Shown here piece after piece: positions 2,476-3,662 of a stretch of 64,000 bases of DNA. The notes beneath the pieces are model-generated. The model did no database searches. It saw only the letters and a list, made by a program, of their open reading frames with translations, and was not told where the DNA came from. Source of the stretch: a plasmid. The position numbers were made by a program, and so were the translations under genes. Each line of letters starts with the position of its first letter. Positions within the stretch are counted from its first letter, which is position 1. The DNA is taken from the NCBI RefSeq assembly GCF_054482595.1, contig NZ_JBTHVH010000001.1. One strand, 5' to 3'.

Positions 2476-3138
2476 ATGCTCGCCTGGAGGCTGAATTTGC
2501 AGCTGAGAATGAACATACCACCCAGGGCGACTAGGACTGTTTTTTGTGTCGGTAGCGGTCCGTCACTCACTCGTGAGGACTGTGCTGCTATAGAAAAAAC
2601 TGGCTGTTCAATCATCGCGGTTAACAATTCCTGGCAGATGTTCGATGACATTTATGCCTTATACGCCGGTGATTTGTCATGGTGGAAGCAATACGGATCC
2701 ACCATACCGGGAGGGAGATTCCGCAAAGTGACAGCCAACCTGGCGGCGGCGAAATCATTTTCGTTGGAGTACAGGCGATATTGTGGACCGGCGGAAGGGG
2801 TAAATAGCGGCGCGCAGGCTATCAGTCTGGCTGCTGAATCAGGGGCTGAAGTAGTGGTATTAGTCGGCTATGACTGTTCTCTGCAAAACGGCCTTCATTG
2901 GCATGGCGCGCACCCTCAAGCACTACGGAATCCAACGCAGGTGTCTATTTCAAAATGGCAACAGCAGTTCCTGGATACCCGCAAAAAACACGCAGATTTA
3001 CATATTTTGAATGCAAGTAGGAGCAGTGCAATTCAATGTTTCCCAAGAATAAATTTAGAGGCAGTGATCGCGTTATTATCGTCGGCAGTGGCCCAAGCGC
3101 CGCAAACTTTGTTGCGCCGCGCGGAGTGCCGATTATAG
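2476..3138 (+). CDS. hypothetical protein, paralog 1 (VGSGPS / IIAVN / VGYD motifs); true start uncertain
   Basis: Track ORF; shares motif order with the next ORF. Confidence 0.4.
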   Translation: MLAWRLNLQLRMNIPPRATRTVFCVGSGPSLTREDCAAIEKTGCSIIAVNNSWQMFDDIYALYAGDLSWWKQYGSTIPGGRFRKVTANLAAAKSFSLEYRRYCGPAEGVNSGAQAISLAAESGAEVVVLVGYDCSLQNGLHWHGAHPQALRNPTQVSISKWQQQFLDTRKKHADLHILNASRSSAIQCFPRINLEAVIALLSSAVAQAPQTLLRRAECRL

Positions 3139-3662
3139 CGGTCAATGGGGCCATCGACTGGCTTAACCGCGCTTCTTATTTTTTCACCCTTGATCCATCC
3201 CCAGACAATATGCGGCGCGTTGGTCGTGGCCGCCGTCGCCGTGGTGTTTGTTATTGCATGGCACTACCCGATGTTAAAGAACGTGAAGTCAGAGATGGCG
3301 TTCTGTGCTTCCGTCGTGTGGCTGAACGCGGCATGGAGCCAAAAAATACGAATTCTCCCGAGTGGTGGGCGTGGCGCTGGTCCGCACATTTCGGCCTTTG
3401 CGAAGATGAGAATGAAATTGCCAGCGGCAATAGTGCATATGGTGCTCTGAACCTGGCTTTCCATATCGGATTCAAACATGTAGCTCTGGTGGGCGTTGAC
3501 GCTACGCAAGAACTACGCGTTCACTCCGGCGGCACGCCAAAAAATCTAAGTCACCTGCCTTTGTTATTCCAGTCTGCGCGTGAACAGATTGACGTTGTTT
3601 CATGCGGGAAAATGGGAGGTATTCCGCAGATGACTCTTAAAGAATGGCTGAAGAATACATGA
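3036..3662 (+). CDS. hypothetical protein, paralog 2 (VGSGPS / IIAVN / VGVD motifs)
   Basis: Track ORF; tandem paralog of 2476..3138, about 100 bp frame overlap. Confidence 0.4.

Follow-up and report, generated by a model that had tools for sequence, protein, structure and literature searches.

The stretch of DNA analysed here (the window) comprises 64,000 nucleotides (nt) of a plasmid, contig NZ_JBTHVH010000001.1 of NCBI RefSeq assembly GCF_054482595.1, and our subject is a pair of overlapping genes at positions 2476-3662. Over the 1.6 kb around the pair, identity is 99.9% to bacteriophage P1 (AF234172/NC_005856) and 97% to P7, and the two genes are the known, long-annotated P1 genes pmgO and pmgP, named hdmB and hdmC in P7. 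The P1 annotation was mapped onto the window with an offset of 77116; the P1 GenBank record gives both genes identical boundaries and the same 103-nt overlap. The pair, the features within it and the nearby gene pmgQ, which proved to be its constant partner, are as follows.

pmgO: 2476-3138, plus strand; 220 amino acids (aa), putative glycosyltransferase, MptE-like and sialyltransferase-like; conserved core at residues ~20-205, residues ~206-220 forming a non-conserved tail read over pmgP; start ambiguous between ATG 2476 and ATG 2509.
pmgP: 3036-3662, plus strand; 208 aa, second, distantly paralogous putative glycosyltransferase, MptE-like and WaaZ-like.
pmgO/pmgP overlap: 3036-3138, plus strand; 103 nt, out of frame, with the pmgO C-terminus over the pmgP N-terminus.
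Shine-Dalgarno (SD)-like AGGAG for pmgP: 3019-3023, plus strand; provided by the conserved Ser-Arg codons of pmgO, of which R182 is invariant.
pmgQ: 4333-5034, plus strand; 233 aa, glycosyltransferase family 8 (GT8)-like enzyme (GT-A, DxD = D79/D81); third conserved member of the cassette described below.

AlphaFold2 modelled each protein of the pair as a complete, confident single domain, with predicted local distance difference test (pLDDT) values of 89.0 for PmgO and 93.9 for PmgP; the low-confidence parts were the first ~20 and last ~15 residues of PmgO and the first ~10 residues of PmgP. Both models matched one fold group, headed by the Maf flagellin glycosyltransferase 5MU5 (scores of 14.2 and 13.5 for PmgO and PmgP, respectively), and followed by the archaeal pterin pyrophosphokinase MptE 8SD5 (11.9 and 12.6) and the GT42 sialyltransferase CstI 2P56 (11.0 and 10.7). 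The next structural matches were SteA, thiamine pyrophosphokinases and mammalian GT29 sialyltransferases, and a structural search of BFVD returned uncharacterised viral DUF115 proteins only. The models thus share the Rossmann-like fold common to MptE, Maf and GT42, and both sequences keep its nucleotide-binding motifs (GSGPS, AVN, NSG/NSA and G-x-D). Family alignments were built from database homologues (36 PmgO-type and 39 PmgP-type sequences), and at E ≤ 10 the Pfam domain PF01973 (MptE-like, DUF115) was detected in 35 of the 36 PmgO-family members (best E = 3e-8) and in all 39 PmgP-family members (best E = 9e-7); some homologues carry a precomputed PF01973 match. Sequence similarity to GT42 was not significant, since the PmgO profile matched the CstII chains in the PDB at E = 0.28-0.9 and the PmgP profile had no PDB match. 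The weak PmgO-CstII alignment is colinear on the cytidine monophosphate (CMP)-binding motifs GNGPSL and TSG...GID. After the G-x-D motif, PmgO has invariant H141 and H143 and PmgP has invariant H173, residues that are candidate counterparts of those of CstII. Taken alone, the predicted fold would suit an enzyme that transfers a CMP-activated ulosonic acid as well as one that moves pyrophosphoryl groups from adenosine triphosphate (ATP).

Our literature search found no function assigned to pmgO or pmgP, and nothing relevant on DUF115/MptE-like, sialyltransferase or Maf proteins in phages. The misspelling 'norphogenetic' occurs in the pmgP and hdmC product lines (RefSeq P1 and P7) and in the pmgM note of the original P1 record, and 'norphogenetic protein' has been propagated through NCBI as the product name of hundreds of PmgO/PmgP homologues. 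The label 'alpha-2,3-sialyltransferase' has spread likewise, without evidence for the sugar. It is almost certainly wrong in that respect because the host lacks CMP-N-acetylneuraminic acid (CMP-Neu5Ac): to our knowledge, Escherichia coli K-12 makes no sialic, pseudaminic or legionaminic acid and no CMP-Neu5Ac.

A different sugar is suggested by a possible remote relationship to WaaZ, the protein held responsible for the third 3-deoxy-D-manno-oct-2-ulosonic acid (Kdo) residue of the lipopolysaccharide (LPS) inner core in E. coli and Salmonella. The activity of WaaZ, whose family we take to be CAZy GT73, was reportedly assigned on the basis of genetics by Frirdich et al. in 2003. Homologues of E. 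coli K-12 waaZ carry the PF01973 MptE-like domain, and the precomputed Pfam annotation of a natural PmgO-PmgP fusion includes a faint WaaZ_KDO_III match. In profile comparisons, the WaaZ family aligned with the PmgP family over 196 columns (probability 83.7%, E = 8e-6), and its alignment with the PmgO family was limited to 85 C-terminal columns (52.6%, E = 1.4e-4). The named hosts of both phage families are all Proteobacteria, and the Proteobacterial hosts of these phages all make CMP-Kdo. According to the P1 annotation, the cassette of this phage contains no CMP-sugar synthetase. PmgO and PmgP would transfer a CMP-activated ulosonic acid, most plausibly Kdo. We favour CMP-Kdo because every host is a Gram-negative CMP-Kdo maker and PmgP resembles WaaZ, and we put it forward as a tentative choice of donor.

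The decision between sugar transfer and pyrophosphoryl transfer came from the genomic company that the two genes keep. Homologues of pmgO and pmgQ accompanied the pmgP homologue in 10 of 10 diverse loci (the diversity sample was assembled by tblastn of phage records and contig look-ups). The order O-P-Q was found in Citrobacter phage phiNP, a Pseudomonas prophage, a Salmonella element and the metagenomic phage L096. Other loci place a further gene within the cassette: a GT4-like gene between P and Q in EP_H11, a sulfotransferase gene (Sulfotransfer_2) at the same point in Gilvimarinus, and an S-adenosylmethionine (SAM) methyltransferase gene in Alloalcanivorax, where the order is P-methyltransferase-Q-O. 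In the Xanthomonas phage Xoo-sp13, O and P precede a fusion that ends in Q, and in a decayed Serratia prophage the order is Q-P with O about 4 kb away. PmgQ itself belongs to phrog_1962, annotated 'glycosyltransferase' (1e-127), and its profile matched the Skp1 alpha-galactosyltransferase 6mw5 (E = 2.9e-7), glycogenin (2e-4) and LgtC. Its DxD motif (D79, D81) is invariant and, combined with the similarity to glycogenin, LgtC and Gat1, identifies it as GT8-like; the Pfam family PF01501 was marginal on PmgQ relatives (2 of 10 members, E = 0.07).

When the PmgP profile was compared with 1.8 billion representative proteins, 559 relatives were recovered. The cassette members also occur as natural fusions in several combinations, namely PmgO+PmgP in one 376-aa chain (P0171; L096:6001-7131), PmgP+PmgQ (P0179 and P0248), PmgQ+PmgP (P0269) and PmgQ+PmgP+SAM-methyltransferase (P0229; L097:6001-7851). 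In three proteins of ~400 aa (P0288, P0306 and P0318), a PmgP-like domain precedes a stretch that by eye resembles a third, more divergent MptE-like domain, and the PmgO, PmgP and PmgQ profiles gave no match to this stretch. There is also a second flavour of the cassette, which lacks pmgP and pmgQ and consists of a PmgO homologue, a conserved 275-296-aa protein with no Pfam match and a methyltransferase. It was seen in PAJU2 (L095:4974-6917) and in the Klebsiella jumbo phage Eowyn (L093:4998-7083), and with its genes separated in D3 (L006 orf7, orf12 and orf13); these genes are embedded among head-tail joining genes. In Caulobacter phage CcrColossus, the PmgO homologue adjoins a putative sugar transferase, a methyltransferase and a putative GT9 enzyme.

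Taken together, synteny, fusions and tailoring enzymes point to a glycan-building module rather than a kinase. We propose that PmgO, PmgP and the GT8-like PmgQ would together form an accessory module of three glycosylation enzymes, which would be repressed in the lysogen and switched on in lytic growth, with PmgQ adding a hexose. The similarity to MptE and the thiamine pyrophosphokinases would instead allow PmgO and PmgP an ATP-dependent pyrophosphokinase activity, with a small metabolite or a hydroxymethyl group as its target. We consider this unlikely, given that the top structural match is a glycosyltransferase, that a Kdo transferase family probably aligns with the whole length of the PmgP family, that the constant partner PmgQ is a GT8 glycosyltransferase covalently joined to PmgP in several proteins, and that the remaining additions to the cassette are glycan-tailoring enzymes. 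Only in P1-type phages does the phosphatase gene ppp stand between pmgP and pmgQ; it is missing from the cassette elsewhere (L003, L088, L090, L004, L005, L091, L092 and L096), a further point against a kinase.

For the proposed glycosylation module, the acceptor may be the LPS core or virion proteins. The LPS core is the receptor of P1, and the best-known bacterial relatives of the cassette enzymes (WaaZ and the GT8 enzymes WaaJ/WaaO/LgtC) act on it, so by analogy the phage enzymes may do the same. In favour of virion proteins, the cassette of HK97-like and D3-like phages immediately follows the capsid gene or lies amid the neck genes, and comparable accessory glycosyltransferases of mycobacteriophages reportedly decorate capsid and tail. 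The boldest form of the proposal, which we offer as speculative and rather doubtful, is that pmgO-pmgP-pmgQ is a widespread lytic-cycle module that hijacks the host CMP-Kdo pool and builds a Kdo-containing glycan on the LPS core or the virion. Were the LPS core the target, the P1 receptor would be masked, with progeny no longer lost on debris or superinfection blocked; were the virion the target, neither Kdo-type glycosylation of proteins nor a system for glycosylating the virions of a phage of Gram-negative bacteria would have been described before.

The gene names, pmg for 'putative morphogenetic' and hdm for 'head morphogenesis', suggest a role in building the virion itself, as annotated in the P1 and P7 GenBank records, and homologues often lie within head, neck or tail gene clusters. 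Such a role is highly improbable, however: both folds appear enzymatic rather than structural, and CRISPR interference (CRISPRi) found pmgO, pmgP, ppp and pmgQ to be non-essential (PMC10695390), as does the knockout survey for these four genes in the form in which that paper cites it. Among 29 single-gene pmg/upf knockouts, only those of pmgA, B, C, G and R were defective and the other 24 had no plaque or antirestriction defect; in the virion proteome, PmgC and PmgG were the only Pmg proteins (PMC9024508). An essential assembly role is contradicted by these data, and a subtle one, for example through virion glycosylation affecting stability, may exist and forms part of the glycosylation hypothesis.

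We then considered the overlap, which the sequence-only reading had put at about 100 bp in different frames. This was correct: the overlap is 103 nt and pmgP is in the -1 frame relative to pmgO (2476 mod 3 = 1; 3036 mod 3 = 0). The conserved core of PmgO ends with N-C-S-R-x-T-x-L-x-C-F-P-R-x-x-L-E-x-x-L at about residue 205 in P1. The ATG of pmgP is made in P1 from the last base of pmgO codon 187 and the TG of the conserved Cys188 codon, and in 5 of 5 enteric lineages it is built likewise and lies inside the conserved Cys-Phe motif of pmgO (contexts CAA-TGT, AAA-TGC or ACA-TGC). The SD-like AGGAG pairs with the 16S 3' end at -6.5 kcal/mol, which ranks it among the best 9% for the ATGs of the window, and purine-rich AGGAG, GGAG or AAGGA elements are also present 9-12 nt upstream of the pmgP ATG in L089, L090, L004 and L003. 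The unconserved N-terminal leader of PmgP is encoded inside the conserved C-terminal motif of pmgO, and the unconserved tail of PmgO inside the GSGPS strand of pmgP; by this layout, the dispensable terminus of each protein is overprinted on a conserved segment of the other. Translation of pmgP would start internally at ATG 3036 from the AGGAG of the pmgO Ser-Arg codons, and such internal initiation would couple the expression of the two genes.

Overlaps, counted from the pmgO stop to the pmgP start, measured 4-103 nt in 8 lineages: 4 nt in the jumbo Xanthomonas phage Xoo-sp13, 11 nt in the Pseudomonas prophage (L088), 13 nt in the Gilvimarinus phage (L092), 37 nt in EP_H11 (L004), 40 nt in a distant Salmonella P1-like element (L090), 70 nt in a closer one (L089), 94 nt in Citrobacter phage phiNP (L003) and 103 nt in P1. 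In the metagenomic phage (L096) the junction is an in-frame fusion. PmgO of the close relatives ends in ...AQ or ...AP, and the P1 tail is ten unconserved residues longer; by this comparison, the 103 nt of P1 are derived from an ancestral overlap of ~70 nt via loss of a stop codon.

A programmed -1 ribosomal frameshift within the overlap, yielding a PmgO-PmgP fusion besides the separate proteins, would fit the frame of pmgP, the natural in-frame fusion known in another phage and the presence in the pmgO frame of two X_XXY_YYZ heptamers (T_TTC_CCA at 3039 and A_AAT_TTA at 3051), both of which (3039-3057) are invariant among P1-like sequences. The heptamers are absent, however, from phiNP, L090 and EP_H11, and the AAATTTA of L089 lies outside the overlap. 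The RNA downstream folds no better than shuffled sequence (z = +0.45), the chance of such a heptamer in 34 codons is ~0.1, and pmgP has an ATG and an SD-like element of its own. A conserved heptamer combined with a downstream stimulatory structure was therefore not found, and a programmed frameshift is very improbable.

Several database records show how the region is handled by gene callers. In the phiNP record (L003:4450-5621) no gene is called for the pmgO homologue and pmgP is truncated by 30 codons; in the EP_H11 record (L004:5001-5603) no gene is called for pmgP; in D3 orf7 (L006:4908-5555) the annotated start at 5097 removes the GSGPS strand of a domain that begins at ~5004; and pmgO is missing from several P1-like records. 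The overlap repeatedly defeats the automatic annotation of homologues.

The sequence-only reading had also described the two genes as tandem paralogues with a shared motif order, and proposed pairwise alignment and profile searches as checks. The motifs are indeed shared (VGSGPS at residues 25-30, IIAVN at 46-50 and VGYD at 130-133 of PmgO; VGSGPS at 16-21, IIAVN at 33-37 and VGVD at 152-155 of PmgP), and the proposed checks gave a similarity that is weak in pairwise comparison and well beyond chance by profile. BLASTP aligned 36 N-terminal residues (E = 0.003), and hhalign of the two family profiles aligned 162 columns, nearly the whole length, with 98.1% probability, E = 1e-13 and ~23% identity. 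Each protein also cross-matched the PHROG family of the other weakly (1.8e-5 and 6e-4). Phages and prophages from Citrobacter, Pseudomonas, Xanthomonas, Alloalcanivorax and Gilvimarinus carry orthologues of each at 31-63% identity, and O-then-P is the usual order there. These comparisons indicate that PmgO and PmgP are true paralogues and that the duplication is ancient; it predates the spread among phages, because the O-then-P pair and the nearer orthologues are kept in distant phages. The earlier suggestion of a recent tandem duplication, in which one gene is a young and little diverged copy of the other, drew on the exact short motifs in common, the adjacency and the same strand. It is hardly credible, given that the products are ~16-23% identical, that BLASTP similarity is limited to the 36 residues above, that each protein is nearer to its own orthologues than to its neighbour, with the same gene order in Pseudomonas, Xanthomonas, Citrobacter and Gilvimarinus phages, and that the shared motifs are the nucleotide-binding loops of the fold, present too in CstII and WaaZ.

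To assess intactness and selection, we compared 70 distinct sequences of the region from P1-like phages and plasmids in independent assemblies. A scan of viral_contigs with the PmgP alignment gave 80 near-identical P1-like loci, which served the substitution analysis and not the estimate of diversity. The 220-aa pmgO and the 208-aa pmgP were kept in 70 of 70 sequences with no indel. Synonymous changes outnumbered nonsynonymous ones in the pmgO-only part (39 and 10) and in the pmgP-only part (41 and 16). The overlap held four substitutions (at 3086, 3092, 3098 and 3119), all at the third position in pmgP and the second position in the pmgO tail; read in pmgP they are 4 synonymous and 0 nonsynonymous, and in the pmgO tail 0 synonymous and 4 nonsynonymous. 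There were zero substitutions among the 70 sequences at 3036-3085, where the conserved C-terminus of pmgO lies over the start of pmgP. Both frames are thus intact and under purifying selection and the overlap is conserved in relatives, as in a true out-of-frame overlapping pair. Both genes are real and complete, and their 103-nt overlap is genuine and selectively maintained.

The earlier suspicion that a single gene had been broken by a frameshift, through sequencing error, pseudogene decay or misannotation, can be dismissed in spite of the ORFs overlapping in different frames and of the single O-P chain in one metagenomic phage, since both open reading frames (ORFs) are intact without indel in the independent assemblies, each encodes a whole domain of high pLDDT that has a GSGPS strand at its own N-terminus, the overlap varies in length between lineages with separate starts and stops, and selection is purifying in both frames. 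Misannotation was seen in the phiNP, EP_H11 and D3 records and not in P1, where both ORFs stand intact at the same GenBank coordinates.

The explanation as a whole, in which pmgO and pmgP are intact ancient paralogues with a genuine overlap and form with pmgQ an accessory glycosylation module, has in our estimate a probability of about 0.6. A number of observations weigh against it. The scores against PF01973 (23.4 bits for PmgO and 20.9 for PmgP) fall below the Pfam gathering cut-off of 34.6 bits, and no counterparts in the models could be assigned to the CstII catalytic residues, His188 and the Tyr156/Tyr162 lid. The WaaZ equivalog hidden Markov model (TIGR04437 / NF007333; cut-off 200 / 473 bits) scored PmgP at 11.9 bits (E = 0.1), had no match to PmgO and scored the PmgP part of the P0171 fusion at 20.3 bits; because this NCBIfam model is so far from being matched, PmgO and PmgP are, judged by their profiles, not WaaZ orthologues. 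Neither candidate start of pmgO, ATG 2476 or ATG 2509, has a convincing SD, and the spacing of ~11-12 nt between AGGAG and the pmgP ATG is beyond the optimum. Knockouts and knockdowns of pmgO and pmgP give no plaque or antirestriction phenotype, their function being a predicted one; a 2026 paper on the P1 virion structure does not mention glycans; and we infer both the donor and the acceptor.

The surrounding genes and control elements are listed below.

PpmgN: 2280-2306; predicted promoter, from P1 GenBank features mapped to the window.
Oppp: 2319-2335, minus strand; C1 repressor operator, from the same P1 features.
pmgN: 2379-2534, plus strand; 51 aa from GTG 2379, heading the C1-controlled transcription unit and overlapping the pmgO start; matches phrog_2350.
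ppp: 3644-4336, plus strand; lambda-type Ser/Thr phosphatase between pmgP and pmgQ (Pfam Metallophos 9e-16; P1 annotation).

The P1 record places a C1 operator and a late promoter upstream of the unit, and because of these elements the unit should be silent in the lysogen and expressed in lytic growth. A generic promoter and terminator scan gave matches no more numerous than in shuffled sequence and yielded nothing beyond the P1 annotation. Between Oppp and the pmgN ribosome-binding site, positions 2330-2360 are hypervariable in the 70 P1-like sequences: sites with several alleles are numerous and one indel of 1 nt occurs, in contrast to the coding DNA that flanks the segment. With a good GGGAG Shine-Dalgarno sequence before it (-7.4 kcal/mol, spacing 6), GTG 2379 and not the most upstream GTG 2346 is most likely the start of pmgN. 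The pmgN/pmgO overlap is 26 or 59 nt, depending on the pmgO start, and the choice between 2476 and 2509 is settled neither by SD nor by the homologues, whose N-termini are variable. Because neither pmgO start has a convincing SD, translation of pmgO may depend on that of pmgN. For pmgN, CRISPRi indicated essentiality and clean deletion did not, a contradiction that the authors leave open. Further along the operon, pmgP and ppp overlap by 19 nt (3644-3662), and ppp and pmgQ by 4 nt (ATGA, 4333-4336); these compact overlaps fit tight co-expression of the whole block. Among the neighbours (1486-2312 and 6671-8100), pmgL encodes a DksA/TraR-like zinc finger (phrog_54), pmgM a VRR-NUC nuclease (Pfam 3e-4; phrog Holliday-junction resolvase), and pap an annotated acid phosphatase; pmgT lies at 7372-8100. 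By these assignments, pmgL, pmgM and pap look enzymatic or regulatory rather than morphogenetic.

P1 is among the most used phages in genetics, and a block of its 'putative morphogenetic' genes is still without function. With this analysis, pmgO and pmgP are no longer possible artefacts and are placed with pmgQ in a conserved, mobile three-enzyme cassette, putatively for glycosylation, that is not morphogenetic and occurs in many unrelated phages of Gram-negative bacteria. A testable hypothesis is gained, with CMP-Kdo as the donor and the LPS core or the virion as the acceptor. The pair also offers a case of overprinting in which the start codon and ribosome-binding site of one gene are made from the most conserved codons of the other. 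If LPS masking or virion glycosylation proved true, the consequences would reach phage host range, immune recognition during phage therapy and the way in which P1-derived vectors are designed. The kind of result is ordinary, since the enzymes belong to an established superfamily, of which they are uncharacterised members, and gene overlaps of this type are familiar. The new element is the functional framing: an O-P-Q cassette, proposed to serve glycosylation and supported by Rosetta-stone fusions, a possible remote link to WaaZ, and start signals lying inside conserved codons of another gene.

The closest known systems compare with the phage proteins as follows. Maf 5MU5 has 632 aa and carries extra N- and C-terminal flagellin-recognition domains, whereas PmgO (220 aa) and PmgP (208 aa) correspond to the central catalytic domain only, and the ~600-aa three-domain architecture with flagellin-binding domains was found in neither. 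The GT42 enzymes CstI and CstII of Campylobacter (2P56, 1RO7) differ in that the sequence match is not significant (E ~0.3). MptE 8SD5, an archaeal 6-hydroxymethyl-7,8-dihydropterin pyrophosphokinase, and the thiamine pyrophosphokinases are kinases found in a folate or thiamine context, in contrast to the phage proteins, which synteny and fusion tie to glycosyltransferases. WaaZ (TIGR04437 / PF27901) has in common with them the MptE-like domain and the restriction to Gram-negative bacteria. Its probable colinear alignment with the PmgP family, at full length, brings together the SGP(S/T)S strand, AVNG(A/S), the A-Y-x-A-(L/I)-x-(L/I)-A-Y helix with the G-(V/L)-D after it, and the I-P motif at the C-terminal end. 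WaaZ differs in its length of ~283 aa, with a ~70-residue insertion, and in being encoded by a chromosomal waa-operon gene rather than by paired phage genes. Finally, Freeman et al. reportedly described in 2023 mycobacteriophage accessory glycosyltransferases that decorate capsid and tail proteins. Those virion glycosylation cassettes resemble pmgO-P-Q in consisting of non-essential, late-expressed glycosyltransferase genes, and in several phages the pmgO-P-Q cassette adjoins capsid or neck genes; they differ in belonging to other enzyme families and to Gram-positive-type hosts, virion glycosylation being unreported for P1.

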